Assembly: GCA_041657955.1 (NCBI GenBank)
Contig: JBBABA010000001.1
Span: forward strand, 40,578 to 104,577
Direction: 5' to 3'
Source: Thermoplasmata archaeon
GTDB taxonomy: Archaea; Thermoplasmatota; JASEFT01; JBBABA01
Length of the DNA: 64,000 nucleotides
Below, piece after piece: positions 6,677 through 54,266 of this stretch; positions within the stretch are counted from its first letter, which is position 1, and every line of letters begins with the position of its first letter. The translations under genes and the position numbers were made by a program. The notes under the pieces were generated by a model. That model was not told where the DNA came from. It was given only the letters and a program-made list of their open reading frames with translations, and ran no database searches.

Positions 6677-7162
6677 ATGGGCGTATTCAGCAAAAGAAAA
6701 AAAGACGACAACAAAGAAACAAAAGACAGTAATAAAGAGGCAAAAGACATTAATAAAGAAACAAAAGAAGAAAAAGAAACTCCTCAAAGGCGCAGAGTCT
6801 GGGGGATCAAAGAAAAAACATTAAAATTAATATTAGAAGTCTCGAAAGAAAGTTACCCGAATGAGTTTGCAGGTTTGCTGCGAGTTAAAAAAGGAATCAT
6901 AAGTGAATTGATCCTCCTGCCAGGGACGTTTTCCGGCGAAGATAACGCTATTTACCATCTTCACATGCTGCCTATCGACCTGAGCATAATCGGCACTGTC
7001 CACAGCCACCCGTCCGGAAACAACAGGCCGTCTGGCGCGGACCTGGCCCTGTTCAGTCATTATGGCAGCACACACATTATAGTGGGCACACCCTACGATA
7101 CGAGGTCTTGGAAAGCGTACGATACTGCTGGGAATTTGATACAATTGGAAGTCGTTGCATAA
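6677..7162 (+). CDS. JAMM/MPN-family metalloprotease (Mov34-like) with lysine-rich N-terminal tail
   Basis: JAMM motif HSHPSGNNRPSGAD (HxHx7SxxD). Confidence 0.75.
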   Translation: MGVFSKRKKDDNKETKDSNKEAKDINKETKEEKETPQRRRVWGIKEKTLKLILEVSKESYPNEFAGLLRVKKGIISELILLPGTFSGEDNAIYHLHMLPIDLSIIGTVHSHPSGNNRPSGADLALFSHYGSTHIIVGTPYDTRSWKAYDTAGNLIQLEVVA

Positions 7163-16056: not shown

Positions 16057-16185
16057 CCCGGCTTAGCTCAGACTGGTGGAGCGGGGGACTGTAGTTGGTT
16101 CTCGGAAGCCACAGATCGCATGGTCGAAGGCTTCCGATTCCCCGTTGACATCCTCAGGTCGTTGGTTCAAATCCGACAGCCGGGA
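16057..16185 (+). tRNA. tRNA-Tyr (anticodon GTA) with ~55-nt intron after position 37
   Basis: C1-G72 and A73 (archaeal Tyr identity); anticodon loop CTGTAG|intron; intron has internal helix CGGAAGCC/GGCTTCCG; exon 2 A-TCCTC-AGGTC-GTTGGTTCAAATCCGAC-AGCCGGG-A. Confidence 0.7.
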
Positions 16186-18930: not shown

Positions 18931-20232
18931 ATGGCAAAACAAAATTATGAAGATATGCAACGCAAGCGCGCGAACATGCAAAATCAAGCCCGAAACCGCC
19001 TGACGCATCCAGTAAACGACATATGGGAAACAAAAAGCCAAAAACTGTCTGGAAAAGCCATCGTATTGGGAGTAACTGGAAGCATCGCCGCTGTCGAAAC
19101 AGTAAAGCTGGCGCACGAGCTCGCAAGACACGGCGCAGACGTATGGTGCGTGATGAGCCGCCCGACTGCAAACATCATACACCCGGACGCGCTGGAATTC
19201 GCGACAGGGCACCCCGTGATTTTGGAAATCACAGGTCAGACCGAGCACATATCTTTGTGCGGCGACACAAAAAGAAAGGCAGATATACTTCTTATCGCCC
19301 CCTGTACCGCAAACACGCTGTCAAAAATCGCGTGCGGGATTGACGACACGCCTGTAACGACATTCGCGACAACCGCGATAGGATCCGACATACCGATTCT
19401 CATCGTGCCTGCCATGCACGCATCCATGTATCGCCATCCGATTGTAAAAGAGAACATGGAAAAACTGCGAAAGTACGGGGTAACAATAATAGAACCAAAA
19501 ATCGAGGAAAACAAGGCAAAGATGATGGATGTTGATGAGATTGTTGCAAACGTCTTTAGACGCATCGGAAAAAATGACATGGCTGGAAAAAAAACACTGA
19601 TAATCTCGGGGTCGACCGAAGAGGAAATCGACGACGTCAGGGTGATAACGAACCGGAGCACGGGAAAGACGGGGATTGAAATCGCAAAGGTTGTCTTCGA
19701 ACGCGGCGGCAATGTCACGCTTCTATGCGGGGCAAGCTCAGAAAAACCGCCGAGGTATATTCAGACAGAGAGGTTTTCCTCAGTAAAAAATTTAATGGAT
19801 ACACTAAAAAAGACGGATTTGCATAAATATGATATAATAATCATTCCCGCCGCAATATCCGATTATACTGCAAAGAAGCAAAAAGGAAAAATATCCTCTA
19901 CGAAAAAGAAAATTTCATTGGAGCTAACACAAACGCCAAAGGTTGTGGACTTCATAAGAAAAACATCGACGGCATACCTCGTTGGGTTTAAGGCAGAGCA
20001 CGGGATACCCGAGAAGGAACTGATCGACCGCGCATACGGGCGGTTAAAAGATATGGGCATGGACTTGATAGTAGCCAACGATATTTCGCTTACGACACCA
20101 GACGAAAACGTGGTTTTCATAATAGACAAAACCAAAAAAACCAAAAAAGTTGAGGGCAAAAAACAAAAAATCGCGGAAGAGATAATCGACACCATAGTCG
20201 AAAATGTAAAAAGTATCGGTGGTGGGAGCTGA
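18931..20232 (+). CDS. coaBC: bifunctional phosphopantothenoylcysteine decarboxylase / phosphopantothenate-cysteine ligase
   Basis: flavoprotein N-domain (IVLGVTGSIAA) and CoaB C-domain; start may be a downstream Met. Confidence 0.85.
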   Translation: MAKQNYEDMQRKRANMQNQARNRLTHPVNDIWETKSQKLSGKAIVLGVTGSIAAVETVKLAHELARHGADVWCVMSRPTANIIHPDALEFATGHPVILEITGQTEHISLCGDTKRKADILLIAPCTANTLSKIACGIDDTPVTTFATTAIGSDIPILIVPAMHASMYRHPIVKENMEKLRKYGVTIIEPKIEENKAKMMDVDEIVANVFRRIGKNDMAGKKTLIISGSTEEEIDDVRVITNRSTGKTGIEIAKVVFERGGNVTLLCGASSEKPPRYIQTERFSSVKNLMDTLKKTDLHKYDIIIIPAAISDYTAKKQKGKISSTKKKISLELTQTPKVVDFIRKTSTAYLVGFKAEHGIPEKELIDRAYGRLKDMGMDLIVANDISLTTPDENVVFIIDKTKKTKKVEGKKQKIAEEIIDTIVENVKSIGGGS

Positions 20233-20233
20233 A

Positions 20234-21172
20234 ATGACGACTATGCGACGCAAGGCGTTTGCACCCGGCCACATCAGCGGTTTTTTCCAGATATGCAGAA
20301 ATTCCAGGAATTTAGAAAAATACGGCTCCCGTGGAGCAGGCATCTGCATTAATAAGGGGGTAACTTCTGCCGTGGAAATTAAAGAGAGCGACGCTCAAGC
20401 AATCCGTGTATTTATAAATGGAAAGGAAAGTGCCGCCGAGGTCACCAAACAGGCAATAAAAAATCTCATCTCTGCAGGATCAGCATATAATAAAAAAACG
20501 AAGCAGAAGGGCACAAAAACCCAACCGCCCGACTCGAAATACAGCATCACGATCAACACCGCTCTCGAACTGCCGGTCAGCCAAGGGTTCGGCTTGAGTG
20601 CAGCCGGTGCTTTAAGCGCCGCACTCGCGACAGCATATGCACTCGAACTGAAATATCCAAAGACCGAAGCAGTATCTGCCGCGCACAAAGCAGAGATAGC
20701 ATGCGGAACTGGTTTGGGTGACGTGGTTGCCGAAGCCACCGGGGGTGTAGTGTTCAGGCGGGAACCAGGCATACCGCCGCACGGTGTTGTAGATAGGATA
20801 GACAGCGACAGTGATGTTGTCCTTTGTGTGGTTGGCGAGGAGATATTGACAAAAGACATAATCCTCAACGCAAAGCACATAGAACGCATCAACGACAGCG
20901 GCGAGAGGTGTATGATTGAGTTCCTTGCAGATCCAACAATCGCAAACTTCTTTGAGGTTGCGTATAAATTTACCTTGGAAATCAAATTGATGTCTTCGCC
21001 AGTCATAAACGCGATAAACGAGGCGCGCAAATACGGCGCGGCAAGCGCGTGCATGCTCGGAAACTCTGTTTTTGCGATGGGGGACGTCGATAAAATGACA
21101 AACACCCTCAAAGAATACGGCGAAGTCTATCTGTGCGAGATAGACAAGGACGGAATGAGGGTTTTGACATAA
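20234..21172 (+). CDS. pantoate kinase (archaeal CoA pathway, GHMP-kinase family)
   Basis: AFAPGHISGFF N-terminal signature; ATG 2 nt after the coaBC stop. Confidence 0.7.
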   Translation: MTTMRRKAFAPGHISGFFQICRNSRNLEKYGSRGAGICINKGVTSAVEIKESDAQAIRVFINGKESAAEVTKQAIKNLISAGSAYNKKTKQKGTKTQPPDSKYSITINTALELPVSQGFGLSAAGALSAALATAYALELKYPKTEAVSAAHKAEIACGTGLGDVVAEATGGVVFRREPGIPPHGVVDRIDSDSDVVLCVVGEEILTKDIILNAKHIERINDSGERCMIEFLADPTIANFFEVAYKFTLEIKLMSSPVINAINEARKYGAASACMLGNSVFAMGDVDKMTNTLKEYGEVYLCEIDKDGMRVLT

Positions 21173-21333
21173 GAAGTCACTATCAAATGAGGGTTTTGGC
21201 CTAAGAAATCATTGTCAGACCAGAGCCCAAACATTTGGCGAAGCACGCTTCAAATTACGCATAGAAACAGATAGAACCGCTTTTCCTGGCAATATAAGGG
21301 TGAAACAAAATCTTCTACCTCTCAGTTATACAT

Positions 21334-21500
21334 TTTTATCTCTGTATATATTTTTGTCTCTACCCGTCTGTTTTTATCTCAGTATGTGTTTTTATCTCTA
21401 TCTGTGTGTTTTTATTTCTATATGTGTTTTTTTTTATCTCTATCTGTGTGTTTTTATTTCTATATGTGTTTTTTTTTATCTCTGTCTATGTTTTTATCTA
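21334..21500. repeat. intergenic tandem repeat, ~8 copies of a ~21-bp unit (TTTTTATCTCTATCTGTGTG-like), including an exact 42-bp duplication
   Basis: direct reading: 21394-21435 is identical to 21436-21477; degenerate copies on both sides. Confidence 0.85.
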
Positions 21501-21572
21501 TTACGACCGTCGAGACTGGTGGTCGGTTGATCTTACTGGTGAAATGTTGAAATATCCTTAACATGGCAATCT

Positions 21573-22328
21573 TTGTCTATCGGAGAATACCTTTATAAAC
21601 GGCCATTTCCTTATGTTTTTTCGATGTTCAGAGAAACAATCGAAGGACTCGACCAAATCTTTGAAACTGATATTAAGACAAGAAAGACACTCCTGGTGCT
21701 GGGTGGCGGCGGGACGCTTAAAACAAGTTTTGTATACAATCTTCTATCGCTCCATCTCGCGAAGACAGGAGAGGTCGCATTATATATCACGCTGGAAGAA
21801 AGCGAGGAAAGCATACTGGAGAATATCAGATCTATAAACGCGCCTATTAGCAACAACATTCATATTGTGGATTACAACATTCTTAGATCGCAGTTCAAGG
21901 ATAAGGAAAAGGACCTGGAATTCGCGTATGTTTTGGAAACATTAATGAACTCGTTTAAAAAAGAGTACCCCGACAAATTCAGGTACTTGGCGTTAGACTC
22001 GCTCGGTGCGTTATATTCGTTGATAAAAATTTCAGACGCCAGGTCAGACATATACCACTTCTTTAATACATTAAAGGATTTGAGCTTAACCGGATTCATA
22101 ATCGCAGAAGAAACAGTTGCCGAACAGGGCAAGTTCGGTTATGAGGATTTCCTAACCGATGGAGTAATCACGCTGGGCTTGGTGGAAATAGAGGGACAGG
22201 TAAAACGATACATGCAGGTGAAAAAGATGCGCACCGTAAAGCACCAGATGGACAAATTTGAGATGGCAATCGGAGACAACGGGCTCACGATTGTCGGGCC
22301 ACTTTTCTCTGAAGCGGGATCTTCGTAG
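21573..22328 (+). CDS. KaiC/RadA-like RecA-superfamily ATPase domain protein with atypical P-loop
   Basis: single KaiC-like domain; Walker A region reads LGGGGTLKTS (no Gly before the Lys). Confidence 0.65.
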   Translation: MSIGEYLYKRPFPYVFSMFRETIEGLDQIFETDIKTRKTLLVLGGGGTLKTSFVYNLLSLHLAKTGEVALYITLEESEESILENIRSINAPISNNIHIVDYNILRSQFKDKEKDLEFAYVLETLMNSFKKEYPDKFRYLALDSLGALYSLIKISDARSDIYHFFNTLKDLSLTGFIIAEETVAEQGKFGYEDFLTDGVITLGLVEIEGQVKRYMQVKKMRTVKHQMDKFEMAIGDNGLTIVGPLFSEAGSS

Positions 22329-22582: not shown

Positions 22583-22654
22583 GCGGCTGTAGTCTAGTGG
22601 TTAGGACTGGAGCTTCCCAAGCTTCAAACTCGGGTTCAAATCCCGGCAGCCGCA
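22583..22654 (+). tRNA. tRNA-Gly (anticodon CCC)
   Basis: acceptor GCGGCTG/CAGCCGC; anticodon loop TTCCCAA; T-loop GGTTCAAATCC. Confidence 0.85.
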
Positions 22655-22960
22655 CATCAACCAACAGAACCAATTAACAGTGATAGGATTTGAACCGAAG
22701 GTGTTGGAAAATTTTTAACTAATTATATTGAAATTTTTTAACTGAGTGGTATAAAGCACCTCTACATCAAATCCCGACAACCGCACATTGGCTGATAGAA
22801 CTAATTTTAACAGTGGCGGGATTTGAAAATGCGACGAACAAATATCATAACATCGCATGGCTCTGAAAAATTTTAATACACATTGTAGAAATTTTTCACT
22901 CCGAAGGAGAAACCCCGGCAGCCGCACATAAAACTCGGGGCAGCGCATACCCCGCGCATA
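22655..22960. repeat. degenerate copies of the tRNA-Gly 3' half (T-arm + acceptor), direct and inverted; att-site-like remnants
   Basis: TCAAATCCCGGCAGCCGCACAT (tRNA end) recurs as CATCAAATCCCGACAACCGCACATTGGCT (~22768) and CCCCGGCAGCCGCACAT (~22913); inverted GGATTTGAA arms at ~22686 and ~22816. Confidence 0.6.
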
Positions 22961-23794: not shown

Positions 23795-24118
23795 AAAGAC
23801 GTTGAGATATACCGGGGTGTTAGGCGTACCCTGTGACCTATAAACCGTCTACAGTAGGGGCGAAGTTTGGGGGCAGTGATTCTGCTTGATATTGGACCAA
23901 ATGCTGCCGTTGAGACCACGTCCCTCGGGGGCTTGGGTGAATTTGGTTGCAGCCGGAGGGTTGCAGCCGTTTACTTCATCAGGGGAACCGGGTCAGGTCC
24001 GGAAGGAAGCAGCCTTATCCTGAACTATTGTCGCTCGAGGGGGTGCGGGGTTGAGAAGGTATTTGGAGCACCCAACTATTGAGCAGAGCACCCACCTCAC
24101 ACGCTCTCAGCGTCCGCT
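23795..24118 (+). ncRNA. signal recognition particle RNA (7S/SRP RNA)
   Basis: conserved helix-8 motif GGTCAGGTCCGGAAGGAAGCAGCC at ~23990-24014; GC-rich structured region; candidate terminal helix 23797-23806 / 24105-24114; exact ends uncertain. Confidence 0.65.
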
Positions 24119-24251
24119 AAAATAAATTAATAACCAAGTTAAACTGATATGGAGAGCATTAGCTGTATAATCGAGAGCATTATTTGCCTATTCACACACA
24201 GTTCAACACGCAGCTACTCATAGAAACAGATCGGATGAAAAAAAAAGAGGA

Positions 24252-52118: not shown

Positions 52119-54266
52119 TTATTCAGAAGTACGCCTATAGCCGCCGCCGCTTTTCGGCTCGTATATGCTCCCGTCCCTTAACAGTCTATTCAAGTTTTCC
52201 TCTATCTTGCTTCTGGGCATGCCCGCCTCTTCAGCGGCATTTATTATATCGTTTCTCGGGGCCACTCCTTCCCCTCCGCTTTCTTTTGACTTTTTACACA
52301 GGTCCTTTATTATGTCGTATATCTTGCTGATAATGTCGCGCTGGGAATGGCTTATGCCGCTTGTGATCATGTCTATATCCCACACGCCAGTTTCAGACAT
52401 CGCTATCCTGTTCATGTATTTGACAATAATATCGTCCGCGCGATTAACATCCTCTATGGCCACCTCGTCGCTCAATCTGGCTTTTGCGCTTGCTTCGGCT
52501 AGGCGGACAAATCCTTCAAGGTATCTCGGCGTAATGGGAACTGGTGTATTTTCCCCCCCGCCTCTCTTTCTGATATTGACGTAAGTTTCCTTAATCTTCT
52601 CAAGAGTGTCTGGAGTCATTACTGGAATCACGTTTTTCTTGGCATATGCAACGTATTTTCGAAGGAGTTCGCGGTCTATGACAGGCATTACTCCGGTCGC
52701 AGATTCGATTTCGTCCTTTTCTTTAAACTTTTCGTCCCCTTTTAATGCCCTGTGTTTCTTTATCTCTCCGAATAGGTGTGCCTTCAAAACATGCTCAGCC
52801 AGCTCGCCGTCTATGGCCTCATTCGGTTTGTCCCGTATCGAGAATATGATGTCGAATCTGGAAAGCAGGGCCGGGGGCAGGTCTATCTGGTCGGCTATTG
52901 ATTTATTCTCTTCAAATCTCCCAAATTTTGGGTTTGCAGCCGCTAATAACGAACATCGCGCATGAAGCGATGCCGTGATGCCTGCCTTTGCAACGCTTAT
53001 TGTTTGCTGCTCCATTGCCTCGTGGAGGGCGCTCCTGTCCTGTTCTGTCATCTTGTCCATTTCATCAATGCAGGCGACGCCATGATCCGCCATTACAAGG
53101 GCTCCTGCTTCCAACGTCCATCTGCCGCCACCCCATGGCGAAGTATCCTTTACAGCGGCCGCTGTCAGGCCAGCAGCAGAACTTGATTTTCCAGAAGCAT
53201 ATATCCCTCTTGGCGCCAAATCCGAGATATACCGGAGGAGTTGGGATTTTGCTGTGCCTGGGTCTCCAACCAATATTACGTGTATGTCGCCGCGTATCCT
53301 CGTCTTGTCAGGCATCTCTTTCGGGACACCGCCGAACAACTGAAGGGCAAGCGCGCTTTTTTCCACATCCATTCCGTATATTGTTGGTGCTATAGAATGA
53401 ATAATCTTATCATAGCAATCCGGATCCCTGCTCAGCTTTTTAATCGCTTTCTCTTCTGCCGGCGAGATGGATATCTCCTCGAATTCCTGCTCTATCGGTT
53501 CAATACTGTTCACATCTAAGAATATGTCAAACCTGGTTAGTTTTCTCAAACCACTTACGTGCACATGGCTTCGGAGTATGCCGTTTATCACTACCCTGTC
53601 GCCGGGAGAAACTATGCTGGCTACGTCGTCCTCGGCGTACGCGGTCAGGCTTTGCGGCTGTTCGCCGCCGCGAAGGCCTTCCGGACTCTCCTGTATGCCT
53701 ATCGACTGCGTATCTGTAAATTTAGAGTCTTCGGTAATCAGTTTAAATCTTGTTGCCGGTGGAATCTTTCCGCACCCGCCGTTTTCTTTACTGCATTCCA
53801 GCGGCTCTTTTAAATCCATCTCCAATTGTTGGATTTTATGGAATGTGTGGCATCTCGTACACTCAAATATCCCTTCTTGCACTTTAGGTCTAACTTCGCT
53901 TGCACTTCTAACAAGTCCTTCTATCGCTACAAATTTGCCTTGGTGCGCACTTCTCAGGTTCTTAATCGGAATCTTGGATATGTTTGCTGGAAGCCCCCTA
54001 ACCCTAAAACGTATAGGCACCTTTTTATCCGGCGGCATAAGAGAGGCGATAGTTTTTTCTGCGGCATAGATGGCCTTGCTGGGATGATCCAACAGATACT
54101 CCGCTAGCTCCGAATCATACCTATCTATCTCTTCGTAACTAACAATAATGCTTCTCTCGGAGGGGTATATATCAACGACTTTTGTGATCTTTGGCTTATA
54201 GTCGTATTCTACGAAGAACTCCTCCCATTTTGCGAGGAGCGTCTCTTTAGTAAATGGTACTGGCAT
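52119..54266 (-). CDS. mcm: minichromosome maintenance (MCM) replicative helicase
   Basis: Walker A GDPGTAKSQ, Walker B CIDEMDKM, zinc finger, arginine finger. Confidence 0.95.
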   Translation of the reverse strand: MPVPFTKETLLAKWEEFFVEYDYKPKITKVVDIYPSERSIIVSYEEIDRYDSELAEYLLDHPSKAIYAAEKTIASLMPPDKKVPIRFRVRGLPANISKIPIKNLRSAHQGKFVAIEGLVRSASEVRPKVQEGIFECTRCHTFHKIQQLEMDLKEPLECSKENGGCGKIPPATRFKLITEDSKFTDTQSIGIQESPEGLRGGEQPQSLTAYAEDDVASIVSPGDRVVINGILRSHVHVSGLRKLTRFDIFLDVNSIEPIEQEFEEISISPAEEKAIKKLSRDPDCYDKIIHSIAPTIYGMDVEKSALALQLFGGVPKEMPDKTRIRGDIHVILVGDPGTAKSQLLRYISDLAPRGIYASGKSSSAAGLTAAAVKDTSPWGGGRWTLEAGALVMADHGVACIDEMDKMTEQDRSALHEAMEQQTISVAKAGITASLHARCSLLAAANPKFGRFEENKSIADQIDLPPALLSRFDIIFSIRDKPNEAIDGELAEHVLKAHLFGEIKKHRALKGDEKFKEKDEIESATGVMPVIDRELLRKYVAYAKKNVIPVMTPDTLEKIKETYVNIRKRGGGENTPVPITPRYLEGFVRLAEASAKARLSDEVAIEDVNRADDIIVKYMNRIAMSETGVWDIDMITSGISHSQRDIISKIYDIIKDLCKKSKESGGEGVAPRNDIINAAEEAGMPRSKIEENLNRLLRDGSIYEPKSGGGYRRTSE

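Follow-up and report, generated by a model that had tools for sequence, protein, structure and literature searches.

Between the pantoate kinase gene and a gene for a KaiC-like ATPase, the chromosome of an uncultured Thermoplasmata archaeon carries a run of short, T-rich direct repeats. What kind of element is this array, how did it come to lie there, and does it act on either of the flanking genes? The initial annotation of this DNA had left three readings side by side, namely an array of regulator binding sites, a phase-variable promoter and a replication or partition iteron. In the following, the array is examined within the whole stretch of DNA that was analysed (64,000 nucleotides, hereafter the window), in independently assembled contigs and in related lineages.

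Structure and setting of the array

The array consists of nine head-to-tail units on the + strand, each made of an 11-nt core, TTTTTATCTCT, and a linker of 7–11 nt. Allowing at most one mismatch, the cores start at positions 21333, 21351, 21371, 21389, 21409, 21431, 21451, 21473 and 21491, which gives core-to-core spacings of 18/20/18/20/22/20/22/18. At this threshold, the core is found 16 times in the window compared with 2.3 times expected from shuffles, and not one of 100 shuffles reached 16; nine of the 16 matches belong to the array, and the single core-like matches elsewhere all lie inside ORFs. TRF describes the same tract as a repeat of period 20 with 7.4 copies and of period 42 with 2.6 copies (95% matches). 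The core scan and TRF therefore confirm the array where the initial annotation had placed it; the head-to-tail arrangement described there stands, while the count of "about eight" copies becomes nine cores. The 42-bp duplication that had been pointed out (21394–21435 = 21436–21477) is exact and forms part of a longer perfect match of 53 bp at offset 42 (21389–21441 = 21431–21483).

On the + strand, the array is 63% T and 76% pyrimidine. Its units begin with T5–T9 on the sense strand, resulting in nine T-runs, and a second T9 run is found at 21427–21435 in addition to the one listed in Table 1. Among the seven distinct units, every position of the core is conserved in six or seven of seven, compared with two to six of seven for the linker. 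Since the units differ in length (18, 20 or 22 bp, mostly not multiples of three), no constant reading frame is kept and the array is non-coding, which rules out a coding repeat. In one of the contigs described below (L129, 2780–2941, about 21445–21564 of the window), the public annotation places a minus-strand gene of 53 aa across the 3' end of the array and the adjoining downstream DNA; this is almost certainly a spurious ORF.

Two further arrays with TRF scores near or above 100 are coding amino-acid repeats unrelated to the minisatellite. The first is a 24-bp repeat of about ten copies at 45427–45661, which encodes the eight-residue motif KIESDKAx in a loop of an MFS-like membrane protein (44813–46192, minus strand). 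The second is a 21-bp repeat of 3.7 copies at 6693–6768, which encodes the K/E-rich N-terminal tail of a JAB-domain protein (6677–7162) that follows a tRNA-Leu gene.

A CRISPR array is ruled out as well, in line with the earlier remark that unique spacers are missing: the units abut directly, their 7–11-nt linkers are related to one another, and the fold z-scores are +1.16 and −1.38. Cas domains were not found among 40 ORFs scanned against Pfam, every large one included. With the same z-scores and no Rfam match at the array, a role as structured RNA or ssDNA was also rejected. The hairpin that follows the last unit (Table 1) was the sole yield of a scan for sigma-70 promoters and hairpin terminators, a scan not applicable to archaea.

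Table 1. Coordinates of the array and of the features discussed in the text (positions in the window).
Feature	Position	Strand	Remarks
coaBC	18931–20232	+	upstream of the pantoate kinase gene
Pantoate kinase gene	20234–21172	+	last of the coaBC–pantoate kinase pair
32-bp tandem duplication of the pantoate kinase 3' end	21154–21217	+	84% identity; includes the stop codon region
Lineage-specific junction DNA	21173–21573	.	no homologue in related species
Minisatellite array	21333–21501	+	nine units; linker type RTMTRTG
42-bp double unit, copy 1	21389–21430	+	A = TTTTTATCTCTATCTGTGTG, B = TTTTTATTTCTATATGTGTTTT
42-bp double unit, copy 2	21431–21472	+	identical to copy 1; missing in L127, L128, L129 and L134
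T9 homopolymer at the junction of B and unit 8	21469–21477	+	
Imperfect 9-pair hairpin	21504–21525	+	directly after the last unit
Solitary unit-like 12-mer	21569–21580	+	ATCTTTGTCTAT; 11 bp upstream of the KaiC-like TATA box
KaiC-like promoter	21585–21599	+	GAATA + CC + TTTATAAA; TATA box 21592–21599
Single-domain KaiC-like (RecA-superfamily) ATPase gene	21624–22328	+	234 aa; = MFA5771158.1
Archaeal SRP RNA	23800–24112		Rfam
MCM	52119–54266		30 kb from the array

The array sits between two annotated genes whose products match deposited proteins, being identical to MFA5771157.1 and MFA5771158.1 of a Thermoplasmata archaeon MAG. The ATPase matches the KaiC family PF06745, and its NCBIfam matches include no ParA family. 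Its gene is followed by tRNA-Gly and then SRP RNA, and the rest of the window is ordinary chromosome, with ribosomal proteins, an aminoacyl-tRNA synthetase, peptidases, MCM and FEN1. The distance of 70 bp from the array to this gene, as given in the initial annotation, was measured to a TTG at 21573 that is the start of the longest ORF only. The deposited protein begins at ATG 21624, and all orthologues begin likewise with MF(R/K)xTIEGL; the array ends 122 bp upstream of this codon and 90 bp upstream of the TATA box. The promoter motif GAATA-nn-TTTATAA is invariant in the window and in three related species (four species altogether). As the ATG follows about 28 nt after the centre of the TATA box, the KaiC-like mRNA is expected to be leaderless or nearly so.

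Some tRNA loci of the window deserve a separate mention. At the tRNA-Gly(CCC) locus (22583–22930), the 3' end of the gene recurs downstream in two decayed copies (about 22767–22790 and 22905–22930), which resemble relics of former integrase att sites. Within this locus, 22583–22790 is also 72.5% similar to the tRNA-Gly(GCC) region at 47723–47931 on the opposite strand. In an AT-rich intergenic region of 735 bp between a divergent gene pair, a 129-nt Rfam tRNA match without an ARAGORN call (16057–16185) is probably an intron-containing archaeal tRNA.

Copy number in natural populations

Polymorphism was assessed in independently assembled contigs that carry the exact KaiC-like and pantoate kinase proteins. 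A 458.5-kb contig from ENA (ERZ27247322, here L127) can be aligned with 6,705 bp of the window without a mismatch; the only gap, of 42 bp, falls within the array and corresponds to exactly one missing AB double unit. One double unit is also found in three Logan contigs (L128, L129 and L134, from SRR29054603, 606 and 607), which have T8 in place of T9 and are 97.7–98.7% identical to the window over their aligned lengths (about 98–99% with 34–35 mismatches for L128 and L129, 98.7% for L134). In a more divergent strain (L001; 97–99% DNA identity to the window, with a pantoate kinase from the same sample that is 97% identical), the T9 site of the window is occupied by T5, together with two substitutions. 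With 451 bp, the intergenic region of the window is longer than that of L127 (409 bp) and that of L128 and L129 (408 bp); outside the array, it is identical. Among all covering contigs, the 123 bp from the end of the array to the ATG (21501–21623) depart from the window at one base only, position 21507, where L001 has G for A; over 113 bp between array and gene, L001 is unchanged. A comparison of copy number among strains or metagenomes had been proposed at the outset; copy number does vary, and so does the length of the T-run.

Tandem repeats can mislead assemblers, and five short-read contigs are interrupted within the array: L130, L131, L132 and L133 begin there, and L137 stops there. From the array onward, L130, L132 and L133 are 100% identical to the window, while the first 2.6 kb of L131 contain 5 mismatches. 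That the duplication or the whole array has been mis-assembled is nevertheless extremely unlikely. The array is seen in at least seven independent assemblies (ENA, Logan, JGI, NCBI), and the contig breaks fit, to the base, what a graph predicts for a real two-copy allele. A simulated de Bruijn graph (k=31) built from the window allele branches only at 21389–21418 and 21454–21483. The contigs of sample SRR8449812 match these positions: on the left, L137 stops precisely at 21418, and on the right, L130 begins precisely at 21454. For the one-copy allele, such a graph is free of branch nodes, which explains why L128 and L129 run through the array without a break. For the pair formed by the window and L127, assembly collapse could account for the difference, since their flanks are identical. 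As an independent sample contains the two-copy allele and other samples contain the one-copy allele, the array must be regarded as a genuine VNTR that is polymorphic between natural populations of one uncultured Thermoplasmata archaeon.

A lineage-specific junction and a local origin

Six relative lineages have contigs that cover the region upstream of the KaiC-like gene, and the array is absent from all of them. Neither a tandem repeat nor the core was found in L003 (KaiC-like protein 78% identical), L004 (69%), L138 and L139 (47%) or L140–L143 (38%); the contig of L002 (83%) reaches no further than 66 bp upstream of the gene and gives no information on the array. The upstream intergenic region of L003 has 183 bp, that of L004 is GC-rich, and those of the 47% and 38% lineages comprise just 82–114 bp. 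TRF returned tandem repeats solely for the intergenic region of the window, and the core motif was present in none of the nine upstream segments examined. The array is not a conserved control element of either flanking gene.

The genes that flank the array are not neighbours in the relatives. In L003, the order is C25 peptidase–DUF357–KaiC–tRNA-Gly, and the homologues of the C25 peptidase and DUF357 genes (L003 76–1883) lie at 40251–42128 in the window, 20 kb from the KaiC-like gene. In L006 (pantoate kinase 71% identical), the gene next to pantoate kinase is an LSM gene and not a KaiC-like gene. Nucleotide similarity to the relatives (the L003 species) resumes at 21574. From these gene orders and the point at which similarity starts, the DNA between the pantoate kinase stop codon and this position can be assigned to one lineage and to a rearrangement junction. 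Judged from gene order, the displacement of the C25 and DUF357 genes documents a rearrangement with its breakpoint at about 21574. Next to the array, the 3' end of the pantoate kinase gene is itself duplicated in tandem (Table 1); this 32-bp duplication is present in the strain with 97% identity (L005) and absent in the species with 71% identity (L006), and points to a duplication-prone junction.

Within the window, the unit is confined to this locus, apart from the unit-like 12-mer beside the TATA box. The condition under which the array was to be dismissed as a generic satellite, namely invariance together with presence at many random loci, does not apply, as the unit is not scattered in the 64-kb window: comparing the intergenic region by self-blast with the window and the fetched loci revealed no second copy. 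A blastn search of the same region against plasmids and phages gave no match, nor did a search of JGI metagenome contigs with a specific two-unit pattern and the left flank. A scan of reference genome contigs for the KaiC-like protein returned no relatives. A permissive two-unit DNA pattern run on reference genomes says little, as the matches listed were isolated chance occurrences, mostly from bacteria rich in A+T; among those listed, L033 is the sole match from Thermoplasmatota and has two cores only and no array.

Several observations concern similar DNA in other places. A Eubacterium MAG (L065, 1540–1700) has a 19-bp tandem array of its own, TTTTTTATCTCTTTGCTTA, which shares the TTTTTATCTCT core, apparently by coincidence. 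An identical 13-mer, CATAGAAACAGAT, occurs upstream of the array (21260–21272) and just upstream of the start codon of an M29 peptidase (24219–24231). Its reverse complement resembles a compressed array unit, and with a blast E-value of 0.5 the pair may be due to chance. Beside tRNA-Gly(GCC), T-rich intergenic DNA at 47930–48120 contains the array words TCTAT and ATCTC and T5 runs, though not in tandem; the vocabulary of the array may partly reflect the general composition of the spacers of this organism.

With these properties, the closest known kind of element is the prokaryotic minisatellite or VNTR, a class used in MLVA typing. The array shows all testable defining features: tandem units in the range of about 10–100 bp above chance, variable copy number between conserved flanks and a non-coding position. 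As in other prokaryotic minisatellites, head-to-tail units of 10–30 bp are confined to one locus, perfect recent duplications lie between older units that have degenerated, close strains differ in copy number, and the array was generated locally rather than transposed. It differs in its host, an uncultured Thermoplasmata archaeon represented by a MAG, in its strongly conserved oligo-T core and in its position at a synteny breakpoint. Short-repeat satellites that arise locally through duplication errors are documented in Archaea, and the survey of Subirana & Messeguer (2019) names Methanosarcina as the satellite-rich archaeal group (PMC6749651). We infer that the present array originated by slippage.

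The setting next to an ATPase gene had also suggested a replication-origin iteron or ORB cluster, or a partition centromere of the sopC/parC type that is served by the neighbouring ATPase. Plasmid iterons are direct repeats of about 20 bp, and the sopC repeat of the F plasmid measures 43 bp; repeats of this size beside an ATPase gene recall both. Direct repeats, a conserved core and spacing in helical register are shared with these systems, but neither initiator or partition genes nor an adjacent unwinding element accompany the array. None of the 40 Pfam-scanned ORFs is Orc1/Cdc6, Rep or ParA/ParB, the NCBIfam scan found no initiator either, no ParB-like or RHH gene is adjacent, and KaiC-like proteins are neither ParA nor initiators. 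The cumulative GC-skew profile has no turning point at about 21.4 kb, plasmid or phage similarity is lacking, and the context is chromosomal and housekeeping. Moreover, replication origins are conserved between close species, whereas this array is not conserved in position among related genomes and does not accompany the adjacent ATPase gene in its orthologous loci. The likeness to iterons and sopC is one of unit size only, and their defining tests fail; the reading as origin or partition site is largely refuted and must be regarded as highly improbable.

Termination, regulation and the KaiC-like promoter

If the array has any effect on its neighbours, the T-runs of its units are the most obvious candidates. 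Intrinsic termination by archaeal RNA polymerase takes place at runs of T5 or more and does not require a hairpin, and natural archaeal genes carry consecutive back-up oligo-T terminators, such as the four T-tracts that act as consecutive oligo-dT terminators at hpyA1 of Pyrococcus furiosus (Spitalny & Thomm 2008, PMC2253867). The nine T5–T9 runs of the array lie on the non-template strand, 3' of a transcription unit. Because archaeal RNA polymerase stops at T5 or more by established enzymology, a transcript that enters the array should terminate. The parallel extends to the presence of several T-runs, to their position on the downstream side of a gene, to the fact that no hairpin is needed and to the principle that back-up sites catch read-through.

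On balance, we consider it probable that the array is a young, species-specific, non-coding VNTR at a gene-order breakpoint, with T-runs that most likely serve as stacked back-up terminators. It would have been born, and would still be changing, by replication slippage or unequal recombination within about 400 bp of novel DNA between two co-directional units, coaBC–pantoate kinase and the KaiC-like ATPase gene. The T5–T9 runs of the sense strand would end the transcript of the upstream operon, and the stack would shield the leaderless KaiC-like promoter 90 bp downstream from read-through. By analogy with the archaeal terminators, the array thus probably acts as a terminator and insulator.

There are also differences from the archaeal precedent. 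The nine T-tracts are embedded in a repeated unit and begin 160 nt past the stop codon: unit 1 holds the first T5 run downstream of the pantoate kinase gene, and no T5+ run occurs between its stop codon (21172) and that unit. Nor are T-runs general after genes in the window, where T5+ runs show no enrichment after stop codons (29% within 60 nt, compared with 37% for A-runs), and the relatives have no T5 runs after pantoate kinase. For these two reasons, oligo-T termination is not demonstrated for this organism. The better conservation of the core relative to the linker could reflect selection on a putative protein-binding site rather than neutral drift; selection for the T-runs would give a similar pattern.

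Such a binding site is the basis of the main rival of the terminator-bearing minisatellite, in which the array, together with a promoter-proximal site, controls the KaiC-like gene by activating, repressing or titrating, through a putative DNA-binding regulator. An 11-nt core with a variable linker is reminiscent of iterons and operator arrays, and the spacings of 18–22 bp correspond to about two helical turns, the 42-bp step to four. Regulators in archaea usually bind near the TATA box, which draws attention to the solitary 12-mer at this place (Table 1). Over both strands (128 kb), ATCTYTRTMTRT has no match beyond the array other than this 12-mer: the window holds five matches, four in the array and this one, with 0.2 expected per window, a post hoc statistic given that the pattern was written after the proximal site had been seen. 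Unit 8 at no more than one mismatch, a count that is not post hoc, has just five further matches elsewhere in the window, and four of these fall in T-rich intergenic DNA.

Against this stands the absence of the array from the orthologous promoters of the six lineages covered, although the TATA region is invariant in the three nearest relatives aligned with the window. At 90–260 bp upstream of the TATA box, the array is far away for an archaeal regulator; the repeats are direct and not palindromic, no DNA-binding gene is adjacent, and the single core-like matches elsewhere in the window all lie in coding regions. The proximal 12-mer itself may be the seed from which the array was copied. The regulator-site reading of the initial annotation has gained no support beyond the hint given by this 12-mer, and we regard it as unlikely. 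A more elaborate version makes the array a copy-number-variable operator built on TTTTTATCTCT and ATCTYTRTMTRT, in which a putative protein occupies the nine sites and the proximal 12-mer, and changes of 42 bp tune the KaiC-family ATPase between subpopulations. To our knowledge, no contingency-type switch by a variable operator array has been described in Archaea, and this version is rather improbable.

That populations differ in copy number and homopolymer length, and may also vary internally, could likewise suggest a contingency locus, that is, a phase-variable promoter at which slippage switches or tunes KaiC-like expression. Bacterial contingency loci consist of simple-sequence repeats with units of 1–7 bp in promoters. 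They share with the array slippage-prone repeats near a promoter and length variation in the population, including a homopolymer tract, but the units of the array have 18–22 bp and lie upstream of the core promoter and the ORF rather than within them. Being 90 bp upstream of the TATA box, and neither between BRE/TATA and the transcription start nor in the coding sequence, the repeats cannot alter promoter geometry in the classical way when their number changes. Furthermore, a 42-bp step preserves helical phase and would leave an upstream element on the same face of the DNA, the DNA from the array to the ATG is the same in all covering contigs but for one base in L001, and we know of no effect in archaea of one-base T8/T9 changes 115 bp from a TATA box. 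This second proposal of the initial annotation is consequently very unlikely.

Lastly, T5–T9 tracts every 18–22 bp, with a 42-bp step of four helical turns, could form intrinsically curved DNA that organises the local chromatin. In a wedge model with parameters taken from general knowledge, the ratio of end-to-end to contour length is 0.907 for the array, compared with a mean of 0.935 (sd 0.046) in the window, about the 20th percentile; the array ranks 1246th of 6383 sub-windows, and when it is shuffled, 43% of the resulting sequences are bent to an equal or greater degree. A control of phased A6 tracts reached 0.32, and the mean spacing of 19.75 bp is out of phase with 10.5 bp. A ratio near the background of the window and equally bent shuffles lead to the rejection of intrinsic curvature as predicted by this model, and a structural role of this kind has scarcely any probability.

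As a base-resolved polymorphic minisatellite in an uncultured Thermoplasmata archaeon, the array is of modest importance and touches no major open question. It explains the breaks of short-read assemblies at this locus and could be used as a strain marker to follow the population across samples. If it is true that the oligo-T units insulate the KaiC-like promoter, the locus would illustrate how a fresh gene-order junction gains a terminator through local duplication.
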